From: Escherichia phage ukendt
DNA: 64,000 nucleotides
Sequence record: NC_052661.1
Reading direction: 5' to 3' (one strand)
The notes beneath the pieces were generated by a model. The model saw only the letters and a program-made list of their open reading frames with translations, was not told where the DNA came from and ran no database searches. Positions 4,733 through 35,967 of the stretch are shown here, in pieces. The first letter of the stretch is position 1. Each line of letters opens with the position of its first letter. Position numbers and translations under genes: made by a program.

Positions 4733-4923
4733 TTCTTTACGTACTCCATGATTGGGGTATGGTCGCCAGTAAGTGTAACACGGCTGTAGGACACATCTTG
4801 TGTCTTCAGTGTATCAATCCACTCTAAGAAGTGTTCTTTCGCTTCTGTGTAGTTCTGTGTGCCTTTAACAACGTGTATACCATCTAGAGTTACACGGAAT
4901 ACCATTTGAATAACGTCTTTCAT
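4729..4923 (-). CDS. hypothetical early protein
   Basis: 64-aa ORF; 4-nt overlaps with both neighbours. Confidence 0.35.
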   Translation of the reverse strand: MKDVIQMVFRVTLDGIHVVKGTQNYTEAKEHFLEWIDTLKTQDVSYSRVTLTGDHTPIMEYVKK

Positions 4924-5117
4924 TTCTTACCTCCTTTGTTGTCAAAATAACTTACCAGAACATCGTGAACCACACACATGGCAAAAATCAGAACAATTGT
5001 TGTCAGGACTGGATTCTCACTAATTAGTGCTATCATCTTTAACCACCTCCAATTGCCTTTCGAGTTTGACTTTGTTTGAGAACTGATAATGACACAACTT
5101 ACATTGCATGTCAACAA
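4920..5117 (-). CDS. hypothetical small membrane protein (true start probably the internal ATG at 5036)
   Basis: Hydrophobic stretch VLTTIVLIFAMCVVHDVLV; track ORF overlaps upstream gene by ~98 nt, the internal Met reduces this to 17 nt. Confidence 0.25.
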   Translation of the reverse strand: MLTCNVSCVIISSQTKSNSKGNWRWLKMIALISENPVLTTIVLIFAMCVVHDVLVSYFDNKGGKK

Positions 5118-5343
5118 TCTGATCGTGATTTAACCCTACAATTTTAACTTCCTTTGCACCATCCCATTCCAAATACTCAAAGCCATCCAAATGATTACTC
5201 TTGTCCAACAGGAATGCTATCTGCTGCCATTCAATCTGAATATCATTTAAATGATATGCTGCACAGAAGATATCCTCATAGTAAAAGACGACCATTGTCA
5301 TTGCTTCGTCCAGTACAACTACCTCTTGTCTTGTAAATCTCAT
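5020..5343 (-). CDS. hypothetical early protein (first gene of the minus-strand block)
   Basis: 107-aa ORF directly downstream of the divergent control region. Confidence 0.4.
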   Translation of the reverse strand: MRFTRQEVVVLDEAMTMVVFYYEDIFCAAYHLNDIQIEWQQIAFLLDKSNHLDGFEYLEWDGAKEVKIVGLNHDQIVDMQCKLCHYQFSNKVKLERQLEVVKDDSTN

Positions 5344-5598
5344 TCTAGCCTCCTAAACGCGTCTCTGACGCACTTTTTATATATAAGATGATAAATCACC
5401 TTACCTAGTAAGTAAACTTGCTCTACGAGCCTCTTATGAAGCTTATGTTATAGGCTATACTATTGCTACCTGTTTAAGCAAGGTTTTTGCACACAGAAAA
5501 TAATTTTTAATAAAACTCTTGACTTTTGTGTTCGAAGTATGCTACCCTAGAAATCTATTAACGAGCGAAGCGAGTTAAGGTTTTAGGTTGTTGATGTA

Positions 5599-5630
5599 GT
5601 ACTCTGTACTCAAGTACTGTACTCCGTACT
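5599..5630. repeat. five closely spaced GTACT repeats
   Basis: GTACT at 5599, 5606, 5614, 5619 and 5626; further GTAC-containing motifs at 5681..5716. Confidence 0.6.
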
Positions 5631-5766
5631 AGATTAATAATTATTAAATATTAATAATAAATAATTATTAGATCTAACAAACAGGTACAGTGTATCAGAA
5701 CTGGTACGTACAGATCAACTTCTATCAATTAAAAAATAAAATAATAAATTATTATAAATAATACTT

Positions 5767-5778
5767 GATCTATAGATC
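5767..5778. repeat. perfect 12-bp palindrome GATCTATAGATC
   Basis: Read directly from sequence; 48 bp upstream of the first plus-strand ORF. Confidence 0.6.
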
Positions 5779-5825
5779 AGTATGAAGTATAGTACGGAAC
5801 ATCTTAACAAGAATGGAGGTGTGCA

Positions 5826-6011
5826 ATGATTAGTGAGAATCCGTGCAAATGGCATCATGTGCCTATTAAAGATTGTATGTCTTGTAATCCACGTTCTATT
5901 TATAACATTGCATCTTATGATGATGACAATGTGTTAGACGATGATGAAGGCTGGGAGGATTTAGATTGGACTGGTTATGAAACCAAAAAGGATAAAATTA
6001 TTCCTAGTTGA
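5826..6011 (+). CDS. hypothetical small acidic Cys-containing protein
   Basis: ATG preceded by GGAGG RBS; 61 aa. Confidence 0.4.
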   Translation: MISENPCKWHHVPIKDCMSCNPRSIYNIASYDDDNVLDDDEGWEDLDWTGYETKKDKIIPS

Positions 6012-6048
6012 CTTAAGATATCCTTCGTGCTAAACTAGAAATGAGGAG

Positions 6049-6300
6049 ATGCCGATCACTCCCCATTTGGGGTTCGAAGGATATATGCAAAATAGCTTTT
6101 ATTTTAGGTGCCGTGCTTGTAATAGGCATTTGACAAACCACTCCAGACGTGATAAAAATGGAGTCATCAAGGAATCAGACCTCTGTTCTATTTGCACAGG
6201 TTTGGCTTTTGATGATAGTCCCGAAAGGGTTTATCAGCATCAATGTATAACAGACGTTCTCGTGTCAAACTTGGTAGAGGACGAACAACTAACAGATTAG
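6049..6300 (+). CDS. hypothetical zinc-ribbon-like protein
   Basis: CRAC...CSIC cysteine pairs; possible alternative start at ATG 6085 with better RBS spacing. Confidence 0.35.
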   Translation: MPITPHLGFEGYMQNSFYFRCRACNRHLTNHSRRDKNGVIKESDLCSICTGLAFDDSPERVYQHQCITDVLVSNLVEDEQLTD

Positions 6301-6308
6301 GAGGAACA

Positions 6309-6557
6309 ATGTCTCTATTAGAAAAACACGTGTTTGAAGATGGTAACGGCAATGCAGTTTTTCTTTTCCATCCAGAAAAATACACATCTGAAAACAATGG
6401 TACAACTTCTATTGTAATCACTAAAGATGTTAAAGTTATTGATTTCTTGGCTCTGATGCGAGAGATGGATCTTGAAATTAATACTTTTAACGCAGAAGCT
6501 TTGGTTGTTGCTCTTCTGGAAAAGAAAGATAGTGAAGAAGTAGCAGAATATGCTTAA
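6309..6557 (+). CDS. hypothetical protein (start refined from track start 6243)
   Basis: ATG 6309 preceded by AGGAGG RBS; followed by a 10-bp-stem hairpin at 6571..6598. Confidence 0.45.
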   Translation: MSLLEKHVFEDGNGNAVFLFHPEKYTSENNGTTSIVITKDVKVIDFLALMREMDLEINTFNAEALVVALLEKKDSEEVAEYA

Positions 6558-6564
6558 ATAACTA

Positions 6565-6594
6565 TTGACAAACGTATCCTTCATATGTTAGGAT
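6565..6594 (+). promoter_or_regulatory. sigma70-like promoter (TTGACA, 18-nt spacer, TG-extended TAGGAT)
   Basis: Exact TTGACA at 6565..6570; TG then TAGGAT at 6589..6594; upstream of the first tRNA pair; overlaps the hairpin. Confidence 0.4.
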
Positions 6595-6804
6595 ACGTTC
6601 ATCAAGTGTGGTAACAGGGTCGTTGACTTTTGTTAAGAGAGGCTTGCACTGCGGATAGTGTTAGAGACTACTTCTTCAGAGGTTAGCTACCAAAGAGGAA
6701 AAGGAATAGTCTCGGCTCAAGAACTTTTACGCTGAAAGTTGGGCTTGGTCTTAGAGAATGTAGCGGTTCTCTACAATCGTCAGCGTCTCTGTTACCACAT
6801 TTAT

Positions 6805-6879
6805 GGCCCTGTAGCTCAATGGGAGAGCTGTCGGCTCATAACCGATAGGTAGCTGGATCGAAACCAGCCAGGGCCACCA
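6805..6879 (+). tRNA. tRNA-Met (anticodon CAT; elongator vs initiator vs Ile-lysidine not resolved)
   Basis: Hand-folded cloverleaf: acceptor GGCCCTG/CAGGGCC, D-stem GCTC/GAGC, anticodon loop CTCATAA, T-arm GCTGG-ATCGAAA-CCAGC, encoded CCA. Confidence 0.75.
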
Positions 6880-6881
6880 AC

Positions 6882-6956
6882 GTCTTTATGGTGTAATGGA
6901 TAGCACAGGAGTCTTCTAAACTCTTAGTCAAGGTTCGATTCCTTGTAAAGACACCA
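6882..6956 (+). tRNA. tRNA-Arg (anticodon TCT)
   Basis: Acceptor GTCTTTA/TAAAGAC, anticodon loop CTTCTAA, T-arm CAAGG-TTCGATT-CCTTG, encoded CCA. Confidence 0.75.
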
Positions 6957-7028
6957 GAACATTTTAACATGAATTAGCTCAAGTGATTTGAACCCACTAC
7001 TGATCATGGTGGCAGAGAATGAGGTAAG

Positions 7029-7100
7029 TATGTCAGACATTATAAACAAAGGCCACGGTTATATTAGAAGACATAAATGCTCGAAGAGCACCGTTCGCTG
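7029..7100 (+). CDS. possible 23-codon micro-ORF between tRNA blocks
   Basis: ATG 7029 with GAGG 5 nt upstream; MSDIINKGHGYIRRHKCSKSTVR; may equally be untranslated spacer or RNA. Confidence 0.15.
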
Positions 7101-7152
7101 AGAACGGGGGTTGGTGGAGTCACCATTCATGGTAAAATGTTTTAAAAAACTA

Positions 7153-7182
7153 TTGACAACTAACACTATTTTATGTTAGATT
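7153..7182 (+). promoter_or_regulatory. sigma70-like promoter (TTGACA, 18 nt, TG-extended TAGATT)
   Basis: Exact -35 at 7153..7158; predicted start site a few nt before tRNA-Ser at 7191. Confidence 0.5.
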
Positions 7183-7190
7183 ATAAGCAT

Positions 7191-7281
7191 GGAAGGGCAA
7201 ATCGACGTGGCGACGAAAACGGTCTTGAAAACCGCCGAGCTTGAAAGAGCCTTGGGAGTTCGACTCTCCCTCCTTCCGCCA
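7191..7281 (+). tRNA. tRNA-Ser (anticodon TGA), type II
   Basis: Acceptor GGAAGGG/TCCTTCC, anticodon arm ACGGT-CTTGAAA-ACCGC, long variable arm, T-arm GGGAG-TTCGACT-CTCCC, G73, CCA. Confidence 0.7.
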
Positions 7282-7285
7282 GATT

Positions 7286-7371
7286 GGTAGATTGGTGAAA
7301 TGGTAGCCACGACAGTTTGCTAAACTGTAGTCGGAAACGGCGTGTAGGTTCGAGTCCTACATCTACCGCCA
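7286..7371 (+). tRNA. tRNA-Ser (anticodon GCT), type II
   Basis: Acceptor GGTAGAT/ATCTACC, anticodon arm ACAGT-TTGCTAA-ACTGT, long variable arm, T-arm GTAGG-TTCGAGT-CCTAC, G73, CCA. Confidence 0.75.
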
Positions 7372-7501
7372 AGTTCTTTTTAATGTAGCTTACTTTAGCA
7401 GAGTAAATCTTCGGCAAGTGGCGGTAACCACTTTACCGATACCTCATAGTTAGTGGTGTGAACACTGGCTATTTTAAAAAGAATTTAAATATTAGTATTT
7501 A

Positions 7502-7589
7502 GGTGAGTTAATTCCGTAGGGGTAGCGGGGCAGACTGTAAATCTGTTATCATTGCGATTCGGGTGGTTCGACTCCATCACTCACCACCA
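7502..7589 (+). tRNA. tRNA-Tyr (anticodon GTA), type II, with atypical 5' region
   Basis: Acceptor GGTGAGT/ACTCACC perfect, anticodon arm GCAGA-CTGTAAA-TCTGT, A73, CCA; junction between acceptor and D-arm is longer than canonical. Confidence 0.5.
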
Positions 7590-7595
7590 AATTAA

Positions 7596-7681
7596 GATGA
7601 GTTGGCTGAATGGTTTAAGCGGCGGACTGTTAATCCGTGTTCGAAAGAACAATATAGGTTCGAATCCTATACTCATCGCCA
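7596..7681 (+). tRNA. type II (long variable arm) tRNA with anticodon GTT; isotype ambiguous (Ser-like body, Asn anticodon)
   Basis: Acceptor GATGAGT/ACTCATC, D-stem GCT/AGC, anticodon arm GCGGA-CTGTTAA-TCCGT, variable-arm hairpin GTTC-GAAA-GAAC, T-arm ATAGG-TTCGAAT-CCTAT, G73, CCA. Confidence 0.55.
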
Positions 7682-7688
7682 GAATTAT

Positions 7689-7765
7689 GGACTTGTAGAG
7701 TTAAGGTAAACCCCCAGTCGCCAATAGGCTTCTGGAATTGCAGGTATCGAATCCTGCCGAGTCCC
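7689..7765 (+). pseudogene. tRNA-like remnant (acceptor and T-arm-like pairing, no canonical anticodon arm)
   Basis: GGACTTG...CGAGTCC acceptor-like pairing, T-like GCAGG-TATCGAAT-CCTGC with 8-nt loop, no encoded CCA, no 5-bp/7-nt anticodon arm found. Confidence 0.25.
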
Positions 7766-7771
7766 AGCATT

Positions 7772-7846
7772 GCTCCTATAGTATAATGGCTATTACAACG
7801 GTTTTGTAATCCGTGGATCTCTGTTCGATTCAGTGTGGGAGCACCA
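7772..7846 (+). tRNA. tRNA-Thr (anticodon TGT)
   Basis: Acceptor GCTCCTA/TGGGAGC with one G-U pair, anticodon loop TTTGTAA, T-loop TTCGATT, encoded CCA. Confidence 0.65.
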
Positions 7847-8118
7847 ACACAACATTAAGAGCACTGTGATTGATCGTCGTATCCTGTGCACAAGGTCTGC
7901 TCGAAAGACAGTGTTCTTAGTATTGTGTTGATCACAAAAAGAGTCACCCGAAACTTGACCGGAGTAGGGTTGGATGGGGCAAAATGAGAAGCGGCTCTCC
8001 CATCGACAGCAACGAAGAATAATATTTGACTTTGGTTTTGTATTATTTAAGTTAGCTTACCGAACGTAGGGCTAGTCACCCAACGGGATACTCGTCACTG
8101 TCCCAATCAATAAAAGTC

Positions 8119-8148
8119 TTGACAACAAATAGTAAAATGTAGTATAGT
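8119..8148 (+). promoter_or_regulatory. sigma70-like promoter (TTGACA, 18 nt, TG-extended TATAGT)
   Basis: Exact -35 at 8119..8124 and TATAGT at 8143..8148; predicted start just upstream of tRNA-Gly. Confidence 0.55.
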
Positions 8149-8159
8149 AAAGATATAGG

Positions 8160-8233
8160 GCGTTCTTGGTGTAGCGGTAGCATTCCGTCCTTCCAAGTCG
8201 GCGGCACGAGTTCGATCCTCGTAGAACGCTCCA
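8160..8233 (+). tRNA. tRNA-Gly (anticodon TCC)
   Basis: Acceptor GCGTTCT/AGAACGC, anticodon loop CTTCCAA, T-arm ACGAG-TTCGATC-CTCGT, encoded CCA. Confidence 0.7.
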
Positions 8234-8330
8234 AATTATTTAATAAAGGGTTGCCAGAAAACTTTCTCTTTTACTCATGGTTTTCTCCTTCTCTCACACT
8301 TCTTCTGGTTGCCCTTCATTAAATGATTTT

Positions 8331-8406
8331 TGGTTTGTAGTGTAGTCCGGTAGCACACGACACTTTGACTGTCGTAGGTTTGGTTCAAATCCAGACAGAC
8401 CAGCCA
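8331..8406 (+). tRNA. tRNA-Gln (anticodon TTG)
   Basis: U1-A72 pair and G73 as in enterobacterial tRNA-Gln; anticodon arm CGACA-CTTTGAC-TGTCG; T-loop TTCAAAT; CCA. Confidence 0.7.
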
Positions 8407-8411
8407 TATAA

Positions 8412-8488
8412 CGGAATTTAGCTCAGTTTGGTAGAGTGTACGCTTTGGGAGCGTATTGTCGCAGGTTCGAATCCTGCAATTCCGACCA
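8412..8488 (+). tRNA. tRNA-Pro (anticodon TGG)
   Basis: Acceptor CGGAATT/AATTCCG, anticodon arm TACGC-TTTGGGA-GCGTA, T-arm GCAGG-TTCGAAT-CCTGC, CCA. Confidence 0.8.
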
Positions 8489-8494
8489 ATTAAA

Positions 8495-8568
8495 TGTTTC
8501 GTAGTTCAATGGTAGAACCCACGACTGATAATCGTGAGACACAAGTTCGATTCTTGTCGAAACAACCA
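8495..8568 (+). tRNA. tRNA-Ile (anticodon GAT)
   Basis: Acceptor TGTTTCG/CGAAACA, D-arm GTTC-AATGGTA-GAAC, anticodon arm CACGA-CTGATAA-TCGTG, T-arm ACAAG-TTCGATT-CTTGT, CCA. Confidence 0.8.
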
Positions 8569-8570
8569 GT

Positions 8571-8643
8571 TTCCCGTTAGACTTACAGGATAAGAGTTCC
8601 ACAGCTTATTGTGATGCTGGTTCGAATCCAGCACGGGATACAT
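8571..8643 (+). pseudogene. tRNA-like remnant (good T-arm, degenerate anticodon arm, no CCA)
   Basis: T-arm GCTGG-TTCGAAT-CCAGC and 6/7 acceptor pairing (TTCCCGT/ACGGGAT); no acceptable anticodon stem-loop. Confidence 0.25.
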
Positions 8644-8646
8644 AAT

Positions 8647-8725
8647 AGCGGGATAGAGGAGTCTGGTCGTCCTCGCCAGTTTCATATGCTGGAGATCATT
8701 GGTTCAAATCCGATTCCCGCCTCCA
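8647..8725 (+). tRNA. second CAT-anticodon tRNA (Met/initiator/Ile-lysidine), with a 1-72 mismatch
   Basis: Anticodon arm CCAGT-TTCATAT-GCTGG, T-loop TTCAAAT, acceptor AGCGGGA/TCCCGCC with an A1-C72 mismatch, CCA. Confidence 0.6.
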
Positions 8726-12404: not shown

Positions 12405-13970
12405 GTGTCAACAGGAAAAAGAACGTACACTAAAAAGTCAGAATACTGGGACAAAGGTGCTGCAAATAAAGCTGCTCTCTCTCCAACAAAAGAGGCAGAG
12501 AAAGAGAAAACGTTACTCCTGTCACCTGAAATAGGAACGATCGGATTAAACTCAATCAAAGCATTTACGAATTTCATGCAACCTTATGAGACTCGTTTCC
12601 CAGAATGTATTCGCACTTTTAAAGAGATGGGTGAAGACCCTGATGTAGCTACTGCTCTTGACGCTACATATATCTTTGTAGATAGAGCATTCTTTGATTT
12701 CAAGATAAAATACAATGTAAACTCGGCAAAGTCAAGAAAAGCTGCTAAGTTTATTGATTACATGTTACGCAATATGCAAGCCCCTCTACGTCAATATGTT
12801 AGATCACTTTTGACATATAAGCAATATGGTTTTGCATTCGCAGAGAAAGTTTATGAGTTGGATGAAGATCCTAAAAGTCCTTACTTTGGGTATTGGCGAT
12901 TGACCAAACTGGCTTTTAGACCACAAGACACTCTTCACATGGCTCAACCTTTTACATATTCGGCAGACGGACGTTCTATTCTATCTGTTAACCAGAATAT
13001 CACCAATACGATGTTAGCTCCAGGTAATACAACTTTAGAAACTGGTATTAAAGAAATTCCTTTCAGTAAAGTTTTATTTGTTGGTAGTAACATTACAGAG
13101 AATAACCCACTAGGAGTTAGTCCGCTTTTAGCTGTATATCGTAGCTGGCGTGAAAAATCTCTTATTCAGGAATTTGAGGTTATTGGGGTATCTAAAGATT
13201 TAGGTGGTATGCCAGTTCTTAAGGTTCCAAGTGACATTCTAAACAGAGCATCTTTAGATCCTGCTGGGGATGAAGCACAATCTCTTCGAGTTCTCCAAGC
13301 CAACATCGCTAACCTGCACTCTGGTGAGCAAGCCTACATGGTATTGCCTTCAGACGTTTATGAAGGCACAGTGATGCGTCAATACGATCTTGTATTCCAA
13401 GGTGTTGATGGCACGGGTAAACAGTTTGACACTCAAGCACTAATCAAACAACGCAAGCTAGATATTTATAACCGCTTTGGTGCGGGTGTGTTGATTATGG
13501 GTGATGGTGATGCAGGAAGTTTTGCGCTTTCTGACAACAAACAAACACTATTGTCTCATTTTATTGAGCGAGATGTAGATATTGTTGTAGAAGCTATAAA
13601 CTCTCAACTGATCCCTCAAACACTACGACTAAACAATATCTTCCTTTCTGATGAAGATATGCCTAAGTTTGTCAGTGGTGAAATGGGTGATCCTGATATT
13701 GAAGTAAATGCTAAAGCTATTCAGCAGTTGGTAGCCTCTGGTGCAATACCTTTAACACCAGAAGTTATTAACGAGTTCCTTGAAAAAATTGGTTTTGAAT
13801 ATCGTATCCCTGACGATATTGTTGCCAATAAAGAGAAATTCTTTGAATTCATGGATAACTACATGCCTGACAAAACTTCACGATCAGGAGATGGTTTAGC
13901 TACAGCGGGAACTGGAACGTCTGATACTGTTTCTGCTTTAGATCCTTCAGCACAAAACCTGTCGAATTAA
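12405..13970 (+). CDS. portal protein
   Basis: 521-aa ORF immediately after large terminase; GTG start with GGAGGA RBS; call is by position and size only. Confidence 0.55.
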   Translation: MSTGKRTYTKKSEYWDKGAANKAALSPTKEAEKEKTLLLSPEIGTIGLNSIKAFTNFMQPYETRFPECIRTFKEMGEDPDVATALDATYIFVDRAFFDFKIKYNVNSAKSRKAAKFIDYMLRNMQAPLRQYVRSLLTYKQYGFAFAEKVYELDEDPKSPYFGYWRLTKLAFRPQDTLHMAQPFTYSADGRSILSVNQNITNTMLAPGNTTLETGIKEIPFSKVLFVGSNITENNPLGVSPLLAVYRSWREKSLIQEFEVIGVSKDLGGMPVLKVPSDILNRASLDPAGDEAQSLRVLQANIANLHSGEQAYMVLPSDVYEGTVMRQYDLVFQGVDGTGKQFDTQALIKQRKLDIYNRFGAGVLIMGDGDAGSFALSDNKQTLLSHFIERDVDIVVEAINSQLIPQTLRLNNIFLSDEDMPKFVSGEMGDPDIEVNAKAIQQLVASGAIPLTPEVINEFLEKIGFEYRIPDDIVANKEKFFEFMDNYMPDKTSRSGDGLATAGTGTSDTVSALDPSAQNLSN

Positions 13971-13998
13971 AAATATTTAATATTTTTTAATTTTTCTA

Positions 13999-33552: not shown

Positions 33553-35967
33553 ATGTCAACTACAATTACTAATTTACCCGAAACATCAAAAGTTAATGGT
33601 TCAGATTACCTGGTTTTAGATCAACCTGATAAAACTGTTAAAAGCACAGTTTCCAACTTTCTTGCTGACACTGGGGTGGTTTTAGCCACCCAGTTGAAAG
33701 ATACAGATGGAGCAGATTTAATACAATCCTCAAATGGTAATACTGTTCAGGAAGAGTTGAATAACAATCTTCTTAATGATCGTGAACAGTGGCGTCGTAG
33801 TCTTGCTGAAGCAGGGCTAACACTGGTAAGCGGTAGCTTTGAGGAAGGCGCTACAGTAAATAGTAAAACGGATGCTGTTTGGCACATTTCTGTTGGACAG
33901 TGTTATACATGGCATGGCGCTTTCCCTAAAACTGTTCCTGCTGACTCAACCCCTACATCAACCGGTGGTGTTGGTCCTAGTGCGTGGGTTAGTGTTGGTG
34001 ATGCGAGTTTGCGGTCAATAGCTCAATATAGAGCCAATAACATCGAAGCGTTAAAATCATTGCCGCTTGCAGTTGGAGACATTGTTAATATTGCTGGATA
34101 TTATGATGTTTTTGATGGAGCGCAGCATTACCGAGTGATTAGTGATGCAGATGATGGAACAGGAGTTCAGCTCAATAATGGTTTATGGGCAAATATTATC
34201 ATTAATGGCGATGCTTGTGTTGATTGGTTCGGGGCTAAAGGTGACGGTGTAGCTGATGATTGGTGGGCTATCAATAAAGCCATTAATGCTTCAATTTCTA
34301 CCGCTTATCAGGGCGGTTGGTGGGAAACGTCAAGTAGAAACCCTAAATTTAAGGTGCATCTCAGTCGCCGCTCTTATCGTATTACTCGGCAAATACTACT
34401 ACCTCCTTACATAGAGTTTTATGGTATGGGTTCGCGCTGGTATTTTTCTGGTGATAATAATTCTCGCTTAATCCCTGATTTTGATAATCCGTTGCAATTC
34501 GCTGTGAAATCTGCTAGCTATATTGTTGAAACCGGTGAACTAGCACCTGAGGGGTGGTATTCTGGGGTGGTTTGGGTTGACCCAAAAAAACTAACGACTT
34601 GTCATGGTATTAAAACTTATGGATATAGCATCGAACCAACAAAACAAATTTTAGGCGGTATAAGACTGATAGCGAGCCCAATTTCTCATGTATATGATAT
34701 ATTCATAACAAATGTTGATTTTGGAGTTTTACTGAATTGTTCATGGGTGAGTAAGGTTGACGTTAAAACTCATCATAATAAATGTGGGGTTATGTCTAGT
34801 CATGATGGTAATAACACTCACGTGGATGGTTATTTTACAGGGACAGAAATCAAACCGCTTGATGGTAATCCTTACCTCAACCCAATAGAGTCTTTAGACC
34901 CTACAACAGGGCTCCAAGACAAATCTATATCTGACCCAGACAGTAAAATAGGTGTGATTTTTTATTGGTCACAGGGGTCAACAAGTACGAATATGACGTG
35001 TGAGGGTAACACTATTTCGTTGGCTGTGGCTAAGGGTGGTGCTGATGTAAGGTGTTTATACTCAGAACGTAATTCAGATTGTACATTTACTGGGTACAGT
35101 TCACTAGTTACAATTGGTGAAATAACTGGCATTGGTGACGGTGGAACTTTTGAGCTTGGTGTAAATAATACTATTTCGTTAGACAAAGACACTCAGTATG
35201 GTGTCGCTAAACGATTTAAGTACGTGAGCGAGTGGGGTAATAAGATGTTTATGCCCTCTAGCTGGAAAGAATACACCAAAGGTTGTTTAGTTAAAGGATT
35301 TGATTATAGCGAAATTTTTGTAGATGCGATAAATGGAGATGACACTAATGTTGGTTCCAGTCTTTACCCTGTGAAAACTTTGGAGAGAGCTCTAACGCTT
35401 GTGAATTCAGTGTATACTACATCTAACTTGCTAAGCTCAGTGCCGAGGGATAGAGTAATAAAGTTAGTAGGCTCAGCAACATACTATCCAGACGGACAGC
35501 ATAGGTTCATAGGTGGATCGTTGACAATTACAAAAGCTGATAACTCACGACCGATTGTTAATTTATCAAAACCAATCCGAATTAACGACACATCTCTAGT
35601 ATTTGAGGAAGTAAATTTAGTGCGACCAACAGATGACCACGGGAATGGTGAGAATGGCGCAATTTTCCTTGAGGATGGGAGTAATGAAGTCAGATTGAAA
35701 AACTGTGATCTAAGTCTACAAAAATTCAGCTTCTTATATCCTACTTGGGGTTTTGCTGGAATATGTACCTTGGTGTTACACGGGGTTAGTGTTACTGGTG
35801 ATTCAACAACAAGAATGATACAAACAGCTGATGGATATCATGATTTGCACTTGTTTAATGTAATTAGCTACGAGACAACTTACACTGGAGGAATAGAGTC
35901 AAGACTAGATAAAGGCTATGATATACCAGCAGATAGACGTGGTCATATATTGGGTGTATCAATATAA
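33553..35967 (+). CDS. tailspike with pectate-lyase-like beta-helix domain
   Basis: 804 aa; WFGAKGDGVADDWWAINKAINAS (GDG-x-DD signature of pectate-lyase-type beta-helices); shares the FPK..VPA..STP..TGG..AW motif with two other spike genes. Confidence 0.6.
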   Translation: MSTTITNLPETSKVNGSDYLVLDQPDKTVKSTVSNFLADTGVVLATQLKDTDGADLIQSSNGNTVQEELNNNLLNDREQWRRSLAEAGLTLVSGSFEEGATVNSKTDAVWHISVGQCYTWHGAFPKTVPADSTPTSTGGVGPSAWVSVGDASLRSIAQYRANNIEALKSLPLAVGDIVNIAGYYDVFDGAQHYRVISDADDGTGVQLNNGLWANIIINGDACVDWFGAKGDGVADDWWAINKAINASISTAYQGGWWETSSRNPKFKVHLSRRSYRITRQILLPPYIEFYGMGSRWYFSGDNNSRLIPDFDNPLQFAVKSASYIVETGELAPEGWYSGVVWVDPKKLTTCHGIKTYGYSIEPTKQILGGIRLIASPISHVYDIFITNVDFGVLLNCSWVSKVDVKTHHNKCGVMSSHDGNNTHVDGYFTGTEIKPLDGNPYLNPIESLDPTTGLQDKSISDPDSKIGVIFYWSQGSTSTNMTCEGNTISLAVAKGGADVRCLYSERNSDCTFTGYSSLVTIGEITGIGDGGTFELGVNNTISLDKDTQYGVAKRFKYVSEWGNKMFMPSSWKEYTKGCLVKGFDYSEIFVDAINGDDTNVGSSLYPVKTLERALTLVNSVYTTSNLLSSVPRDRVIKLVGSATYYPDGQHRFIGGSLTITKADNSRPIVNLSKPIRINDTSLVFEEVNLVRPTDDHGNGENGAIFLEDGSNEVRLKNCDLSLQKFSFLYPTWGFAGICTLVLHGVSVTGDSTTRMIQTADGYHDLHLFNVISYETTYTGGIESRLDKGYDIPADRRGHILGVSI

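Follow-up and report, generated by a model that had tools for sequence, protein, structure and literature searches.

A probable divergent promoter and leader region with an apparently dispensable GTACT array in Escherichia phage ukendt

The 482-bp intergenic gap at positions 5344–5825 of Escherichia phage ukendt is probably a compound divergent promoter and leader region of the genus Phapecoctavirus, in which a conspicuous array of GTACT repeats would represent a recent and dispensable tandem expansion. The gap was analyzed within a 64,000-nucleotide stretch of sequence record NC_052661.1 (hereafter, the window), which comes from a phAPEC8-like myovirus (Phapecoctavirus, Stephanstirmvirinae) with a genome of ~150 kb. 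It had been described in an initial annotation as a divergent control region and candidate replication origin with GTACT iterons. The control region stands, with promoter-like elements facing both ways that are conserved in two genera and with the easiest-melting DNA of the genome; the GTACT-iteron origin does not. From sequence and conservation, we infer promoter activity, a function of the hairpins at the RNA level and binding of a regulator.

The gap lies between a minus-strand gene for a protein of 107 amino acids (aa; 5020–5343) and a plus-strand gene for a 61-aa protein (5826–6011), and its initial description as the divider between a minus-strand block and plus-strand genes agrees with the reading frames, which end at 5343 on one side and begin at 5826 on the other. 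According to the public annotation, the left side holds minus-strand small genes of unknown function, RNA and DNA ligases, exonucleases and ribonucleotide reductase, and the right side three small genes, ten tRNAs (6805–8725) and then the large terminase. Positions 4800–6600 are 99.3% identical to phage DE16 and have matches in 69 phage records, with a query coverage of at least 80% in 61. The gap was aligned across 12 clade members and further compared with the phiWec clade, muut, L039 and L064. Genome-wide ranks refer to a composite genome of ~150 kb, consisting of ESCO13 1–50,000, the window and ESCO13 112,000–149,813. The following features were delineated in the gap:

5359..5371, minus strand: hairpin GCGTC-TCT-GACGC in the predicted 5' untranslated region (UTR) of the leftward mRNA, just upstream of the ribosome-binding site.
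5388..5416, minus strand: P_L, a sigma-70-like promoter predicted by consensus scan (-35 TTTACT at 5416–5411, 17-bp spacer, -10 TATCAT at 5393–5388).
5420..5518, no strand: apparently unconstrained spacer between the divergent promoters, with 7- and 22-bp deletions in phAPEC8 and EP57 and a 71-aa gene inserted in the phiWec clade.
5519..5548, plus strand: P_R1, a predicted extended -10 promoter (-35 TTGACT at 5519–5524, 18-bp spacer, TG at 5540–5541, -10 TACCCT at 5543–5548).
5558..5578, plus strand: leader mini-hairpin TTAAC-GAGCGAAGCGA-GTTAA with the invariant 14-nt core C-GAGCG(A/C/AT)AGCGA-G.
5575..5589, plus strand: TTAAGGTT(T) micro-repeat of variable number, longer by one unit in UP17 and Ro121lw and by about one (9 nt) in anhysbys.
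5599..5630, plus strand: five GTACT within a ~20-bp tandem duplication, clade-specific and copy-variable, eroded to ATAC/GTAT in BI-EHEC and KKP3954.
5630..5676, no strand: A/T tract 1 (5633–5670, 38 bp) within the near-perfect inverted repeat TAGATTAATAATTATT ... AATAATTATTAGATCT.
5670..5682, no strand: AGATCTAACAAAC, one instance of the cross-lineage motif GATCTAAMARAC, with a Dam GATC inside.
5685..5719, no strand: second GTAC group (5685, 5704, 5708), followed by a conserved GATCAAC (5713–5719).
5727..5763, no strand: A/T tract 2 (37 bp), directly next to the -35 of P_R2, where an UP element would lie.
5765..5793, plus strand: P_R2, a predicted promoter TTGATC-17-TATAGT, with a ribosome-binding site GGAGG at 5815–5819 and ATG at 5826.

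Hexamers of the sigma-70 -35 and -10 type occur on both strands of the gap at a spacing of 16–18 bp, and they are conserved across two genera and metagenomic relatives while the surrounding non-coding DNA diverges. For P_R1, the pattern TTGACT-N14-16-TGNTANNNT is matched five times in the window, against 0.21 matches expected, and none of 100 shuffles reached five. The string TGcTACCCTA is kept despite differing spacers in the phiWec clade, muut, L039, L058, L064, L067 and L084, and in the same set conservation runs from the -35 of P_R1 through the leader hairpin, with spacers and flanks diverging.

P_R2 has recognizable equivalents in the other lineages, namely TTGACT-18-TAGAGT in phiWec, TTGACT..AGATCT..TAGAGT in muut and TTGATC-17-TACACT in L064. 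TAGATC or AGATCT stands in the P_R2 spacer in all four lineages, and the promoter, the A/T tract upstream of it and the spacer GATC are conserved in kind throughout them. The perfect 12-bp palindrome reported initially was recovered as GATCTATAGATC at 5767–5778; it extends to the 14-bp TGATCTATAGATCA (5766–5779), which contains two GATC and covers the -35 and spacer of P_R2, although perfect palindromes of 12 bp are not rare, with 19 in the window. On the other strand, the -10 TATCAT of P_L and its flanks are invariant in the 12 clade members, and P_L is retained in the phiWec clade. The predicted 5' UTR hairpin is also invariant in this alignment, and muut carries a different hairpin-capable sequence (GGCTC..GAGCT) in the same place; the putative element would lie just ahead of the leftward ribosome-binding site (CCTCCT at 5349–5354 in plus-strand letters). 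Transcription from P_L would cover the block of minus-strand genes from 5343 leftward.

Mini-hairpins with a GNA loop (GCGNAGC type) are extraordinarily stable, and nut- or put-type RNA elements and 5'-leader hairpins lie just downstream of phage early promoters. The hairpin behind P_R1 resembles both. Its core, GCGMAGC, is closed by C-G and varies only at the tolerated N position, and it is placed at about +5 to +25 of the predicted promoter. Two G-C pairs close the GNA loop, with tandem G.A pairs beneath, and the core is unique in the window. No Rfam family matches it, and the tandem G.A pairs and the invariant 14-mer take it beyond a simple stabilizer hairpin. In an RNAalifold analysis of 11 distinct copies, drawn from two genera and including paralogues, the outer pair 8-27 was UA in five copies, CG in three, UG in two and GU in one, and pair 10-25 was AU in five, CG in three and broken in three. 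The G.U pairs in the covarying outer stem fit an RNA transcribed from the plus strand.

The combination of P_R1 and hairpin is repeated as a cassette. ESCO13 carries three copies, one at the gap locus and two on the minus strand at ~129,826 and ~16,345. The latter two (L020 ~17,827 and L019, respectively) read TTGACT-N18-TG(C/G)TACCCTAA followed by the hairpin with the core variant GAGCGATAGCGAG. Further copies were sought in IMG/VR with pattern scans, of which the first was too narrow (one hit) and the second too loose (118 hits, mostly chance); filtering by the full promoter context left ~9 true cassettes, and each of two contigs of ~149 kb contained the cassette twice. TAGAT/AGATC motifs follow downstream of each copy. 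Around the ESCO13 copy at ~16,345, a gap of 361 bp carries no annotation. This copy is directed against the early genes on either side, and because a strong hairpin (GTTTCAT...ATGAAAC) follows it, it may specify a small RNA or an antisense transcript. The TTAAGGTT(T) micro-repeat next to the hairpin is annotated as a repeat_region in the anhysbys record.

We tentatively raise the possibility that the cassette as a whole (TTGACT-N18-TGcTACCCTAA, the C-GAGCG(N1-2)AGCGA-G hairpin and AGATCTA/TAGATY downstream) is an undescribed phage regulatory element that defines a class of co-regulated promoters. If so, a dedicated phage or host factor would read the leader RNA or the AGATCTA sites, and could act by antitermination, by RNA processing or protection, as a repressor or as a Dam-sensitive switch. 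The cassette at the gap would then feed transcription into the weakest duplex of the genome and might also act as an origin in the style of T7 or T4.

A k-mer screen of nine leaders returned AGATC as the top string (25 occurrences vs 6.0 expected, z 6.8), with GATCTA at 14 vs 2.6 and CTAACA also among the top hexamers; GTACT was not enriched. In the alignment, AGATCTAACAAAC corresponds to GATCTTAAAGAC in phiWec and to GATCTAACAGAC in muut, and GATCTWAAAGAC is found twice in phiWec. Judged by these occurrences, AGATCTA/TAGATY, and not GTACT, may be the motif of a putative multi-site regulator target.

The GTACT repeats themselves are as initially counted, five within 32 bp (starting at 5599, 5606, 5614, 5619 and 5626), and the further GTAC-containing motifs noted at 5681–5716 correspond to GTAC at 5685, 5704 and 5708, with another at 5792. 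Iterons are typically ~17–22 bp long, helically phased and conserved, and are accompanied by an initiator gene and often by DnaA boxes. If the GTACT repeats were of this kind, an initiator or an early regulator would bind them beside an unwinding element, and several observations speak for such a function. Direct repeats do adjoin an AT-rich tract that could unwind, with GATC nearby, as in the lambda ori, P1 oriR and theta plasmids. GTAC is the most depleted of the 256 tetramers in the window (66 observed vs 204 expected under a second-order Markov model, ratio 0.32), and nine of the 66 sites fall within 5599–5795; judged by the remainder of the window, a 260-bp segment should hold 0.23 sites instead of nine (Poisson P ~5e-12), and this cluster is the densest in the composite genome. 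The cluster also persists in the great majority of the ~69 relatives despite a genome-wide purge of GTAC, and GTAC-bearing arms contribute to a 130-bp imperfect dyad with a z of -4.3 in the window.

Against this, the repeated core is 5 bp long and spaced irregularly by 7, 8, 5 and 7 bp, with no helical phasing, where iteron origins have at least three phased direct repeats of ~17–22 bp. The direct-repeat search found a single ~20-bp duplication, GTACTCTGTACT / GTACTCCGTACT, underlying the array. The array varies in copy number (three GTACT in dw-ec vs five in the window) and is absent from the phiWec179/188/190 clade, PsgM04F, one IMG/VR contig, the Justusliebigvirus muut and L039. In the viable isolates BI-EHEC and KKP3954, nearly all GTAC of the cluster have become ATAC or GTAT with flanks unchanged; six to seven of the nine sites are destroyed, by mutations that are not identical in the two phages, and the loss rate is no lower inside the cluster (67–78%) than elsewhere (50–59%). 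The second GTAC group is likewise partly mutated in these two phages and reads TATAC/TTAGAT in the phiWec clade, with GATCAAC retained. Nor does the dyad show compensating changes, its z falling to -2.4 in BI-EHEC and -1.8 in KKP3954. No exact consensus match for a DnaA box or for IHF was found at the locus, where the only one-mismatch hits are TTTTGCACA (DnaA) and AATAAAACTCTTG (IHF). No initiator could be recognized next to the gap: the flanking 107-, 61-, 83- and 104-aa proteins had no above-threshold hit in Pfam, and all PHROGs that they matched are of unknown function. Natural variants thus largely refute the iteron reading, and an iteron-type origin or regulator array appears very improbable. 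What the initial annotation itself named as evidence against its proposal, repeats that are not conserved in related phages and a skew minimum elsewhere, is thereby observed in full or for the most part.

Two related candidates were rejected. A degenerate RTAY repeat, as a conserved site that tolerates GTAC-to-ATAC/GTAT changes, is absent in phiWec and muut, and RTAY enrichment is near the level expected from the AT-richness of the segment by a rough estimate from base composition. A conserved cruciform formed by the 130-bp dyad decays in BI-EHEC and KKP3954 and is absent from phiWec188 (z -0.9).

The erosion of the array is part of a genome-wide pattern. At ~97.5% overall identity, KKP3954 has lost 33 of 53 alignable GTAC sites of the window (62%) and BI-EHEC 25 of 47 (53%), the highest fractions of any tetramer against an all-tetramer median of 9%, with gains of only six and four sites, respectively. 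The two phages often mutate the same site differently (e.g., 5626, 5708, 12425 and 27114), which marks the losses as convergent. GTAC density is 1.0 per kb in the window, 0.56–0.58 per kb in KKP3954 and BI-EHEC, and ~2.0–3.3 per kb in outgroups, the latter estimated from small samples. All NGTACN contexts are present in the window, none missing, and their similar counts indicate that the target is the 4-bp GTAC site itself. The losses show a strong C-to-T bias at the outer positions (ATAC/GTAT).

Restriction avoidance could be the cause of the purge, as could deamination of methylated cytosine, with which the C-to-T bias would also fit. For the former speak the depletion of a palindrome relative to the Markov expectation and its directional, convergent loss between close relatives. 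It is also plausible because an exceptional sensitivity to restriction-modification systems is reported for relatives of the phAPEC8-type group (PMC8594841). In unmodified coliphages of the BASEL study, EcoRI and EcoRV sites have been lost in T7-like and T5-like phages (PMC8594841); as there, a short palindrome is the most depleted string here and is lost convergently in separate lineages, whereas the strong C-to-T bias at the outer positions sets the present case apart. Our literature search found nothing specific on GTAC avoidance in Phapecoctavirus, nor on a GTAC-specific restriction system in its hosts. The case is an unusually clear one of ongoing, convergent loss of a 4-bp palindrome between phages ~97.5% identical, and it is relevant to host range and to how phages in therapeutic cocktails escape restriction.

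Two side observations concern GTAC sites. At window position 5789, the -10 of P_R2 is TATAGT where most clade members have TACAGT, a single C-to-T change that improves the hexamer and removes one GTAC. The second-densest GTAC cluster of the genome (five in 150 bp, ESCO13 ~35,800–35,900) belongs to a gene of the rhamnose cluster, that for dTDP-glucose 4,6-dehydratase, which would fit a more recently acquired segment that the purge has still to reach.

The AT-rich DNA of the gap was initially described as a 45-bp tract composed solely of A and T. Our analysis instead resolves two tracts, at 5633–5670 and 5727–5763, which are the longest A/T-only runs in the composite genome. No duplex window of 40, 60 or 200 bp in that genome is less stable than the weakest ones at this locus, which also holds the second-least stable 100-bp window. 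The inverted repeat around tract 1 forms the central stem in DNA folds and coincides with the least stable 40-bp window. Elsewhere, the third-longest A/T-only tract of the genome (31 bp, window 13965–13995) is among the least stable windows of 40–100 bp.

In the primary origin of T7, promoters 1.1A and 1.1B are followed by an AT-rich stretch, and T4 oriF and oriG combine a middle promoter with a downstream DNA-unwinding element. A transcription-activated origin of this kind, which could coexist with a promoter role, is the main surviving rival to a region devoted to promoters and leaders. P_R1 would transcribe into the A/T tract 85–120 bp downstream, and either the RNA itself or the strand opening that it brings about would prime or license DNA synthesis. 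The anatomy allows it: a predicted strong promoter (P_R1, 5519–5548) is directed into A/T-only DNA (5633–5670) and into the least stable duplex of the genome, by prediction only, GATC/AGATCT motifs are enriched and the locus is at a local minimum of cumulative GC skew. The limited distribution of tract 1 weakens it. P_R1 is conserved among relatives, but tract 1 is specific to the clade; its phiWec counterpart is much reduced, by ~15 bp, and has another sequence. Tract 2 is the conserved one, with A/T-only tracts at the same position in phiWec (~23 bp) and muut (~35 bp), and it is located upstream of P_R2, where from its position we infer an UP element. Moreover, the predicted promoter is of host type, and not one for a phage RNA polymerase or dependent on MotA, and over 100 bp the locus is about matched in AT content by a non-coding region near the terminal repeats.

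The skew minimum, in turn, is explained by the strand switch. Cumulative GC skew in the composite genome forms four segments that track gene orientation exactly, which makes it uninformative as an indicator of an origin. The gap is a local minimum only; the global minimum, by which the initial annotation would have judged the origin, falls near ESCO13 131.6 kb, where the other divergent junction lies. In rV5, the authors likewise tied skew to the orientation of transcription and could define no origin (PMC3606486). On balance, an origin of the T7 or T4 oriF/oriG kind seems unlikely, though clearly less so than one built on iterons.

The gap might also contain a genome end or packaging site, such as terminal repeats or pac, considering that the nieznany record both starts and ends inside it. 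The GATC-bearing hexamers on either side of AT-rich DNA recall the pac of P1. However, KKP3954 has an exact 309-bp direct terminal repeat (L016 1–309, identical to the last 309 bases of L018) ~53 kb away, in another, large non-coding region ahead of small early genes. A 342-bp terminal repeat has been determined by PhageTerm in BME3 (PMC12210895), and the BME3 and KKP3954 records resemble each other in sequence at their starts. Given the KKP3954 repeat and this similarity, the gap is not expected to be a genome end. The break in nieznany coincides with an apparent loss of ~70 bp in low-complexity A/T repeats, which fits an assembly edge. We regard a genome end or packaging site in the gap as hardly credible, the least probable of the explanations considered.

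Some points also weigh against the promoter and leader reading that we favor. Generic promoter-like hits in the region are not enriched over shuffles (14 vs 12.6), so it is conservation and the extended -10 class that carry the promoter calls. As a -10 hexamer, TACCCT is weak, and its strict conservation could reflect a constraint other than sigma-70 recognition. A pure promoter model does not require the gap to be the easiest-melting place in the genome. The k-mer screen was unbiased but covered nine sequences only, some of them related, and the TAGATY count (six in the 261 bp of 5540–5800 vs 0.35–0.6 expected) comes from a post hoc test, as the motif was noticed before testing. Finally, in the literature on Phapecoctavirus we found no work on origins, promoters or the transcriptome, and hence no mapped transcription starts.

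Considering these points, we still hypothesize that the gap acts as a divergent promoter and leader region. P_L with its 5' UTR hairpin would serve the leftward block of unknown-function genes, RNA and DNA ligases, exonucleases and nucleotide-metabolism genes, and P_R1 and P_R2 in tandem would serve the three small genes, the 10-tRNA array and the terminase/structural block. P_R1 would belong to a co-regulated promoter class, with a transcript that starts with the invariant GA-rich mini-hairpin, and the cassette is shared with Justusliebigvirus. The AGATCTA/TAGATY motifs downstream of P_R1 would be the best candidates for regulator sites or for sites sensitive to Dam/SeqA. P_R2 would be boosted by the UP-like 37-bp A/T tract directly upstream, and the GATC-bearing palindrome over its -35 and spacer is likely an operator or a methylation-sensitive switch. 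The GTACT array and much of tract 1 would be a recent tandem expansion of the phAPEC8 clade within the P_R1 leader, and not required sequence-specific sites.

This arrangement has a precedent in rV5-like myoviruses, for which a four-unit transcription layout and bidirectional host-type promoters at divergent junctions were predicted (Kropinski et al. 2013, PMC3606486). The same four-block layout is found here, with host-type -35/-10 promoters, some with an extended -10, and with GC- and AT-skew changes that merely follow the orientation of transcription (PMC3606486). Unlike the rV5-like junctions, the gap has two tandem rightward promoters, one of them in a three-copy promoter-hairpin cassette that is absent from that paper's description (PMC3606486). 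The locus is best classed as a divergent promoter region, an ordinary type of element, found here in phages that have been little studied; the three-copy cassette and the very clear ongoing GTAC purge are modestly novel by-products. Phages of the phAPEC8/phi92 group are widely isolated for therapy. The present analysis removes a tempting but wrong origin call, with the GTACT repeats appearing as debris of a tandem duplication that is now being erased, and it provides testable control elements, namely three predicted promoters, the leader hairpin cassette, the GATC-bearing operator-like palindrome and the weakest duplex of the genome.

The architecture of the gap differs in detail among relatives. 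In EP57, a phage of 130.7 kb, the gap adjoins a large deletion and has the DNA ligase close by on the left, and it lacks ~22 bp of the spacer as well as the segment between P_R2 and the ribosome-binding site. The phiWec179/188/190 clade and PsgM04F have an additional minus-strand gene for 71 aa between P_L and P_R1 (~2573–2785 in L007/L008/L009/L025). Within the gap, a 47-aa open reading frame at 5715–5858 on the minus strand was rejected as a gene, since P_R2 lies within its span and the indels of BI-EHEC would shift its frame. The 61-aa protein does not establish synteny with Seunavirus either, as its weak homologue lies in an unrelated context.

The records that match positions 4800–6600 include phages named after Campylobacter, Acinetobacter, Klebsiella or Pseudomonas, as well as 'Dompiswa' phages. 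Most of these oddly host-named records are 98.8–99.1% identical to the window at this locus; the Pseudomonas record PsgM04F, a member of the phiWec-type clade, matches part of the gap only, at ~83%. This may reflect unreliable host labels or an unusually broad host range.

Searches with Rfam 15 (at the gathering threshold and at E up to 5) and ARAGORN identified no non-coding RNA or tRNA in the gap and nothing credible at 5300–6900; in the window, only tRNAs scored above the Rfam threshold. One of these, at 7502–7586 on the plus strand, reached 39 bits with the Rfam tRNA model (gathering score 29) and was not called by ARAGORN; it may be an eleventh tRNA, atypical or degenerate.

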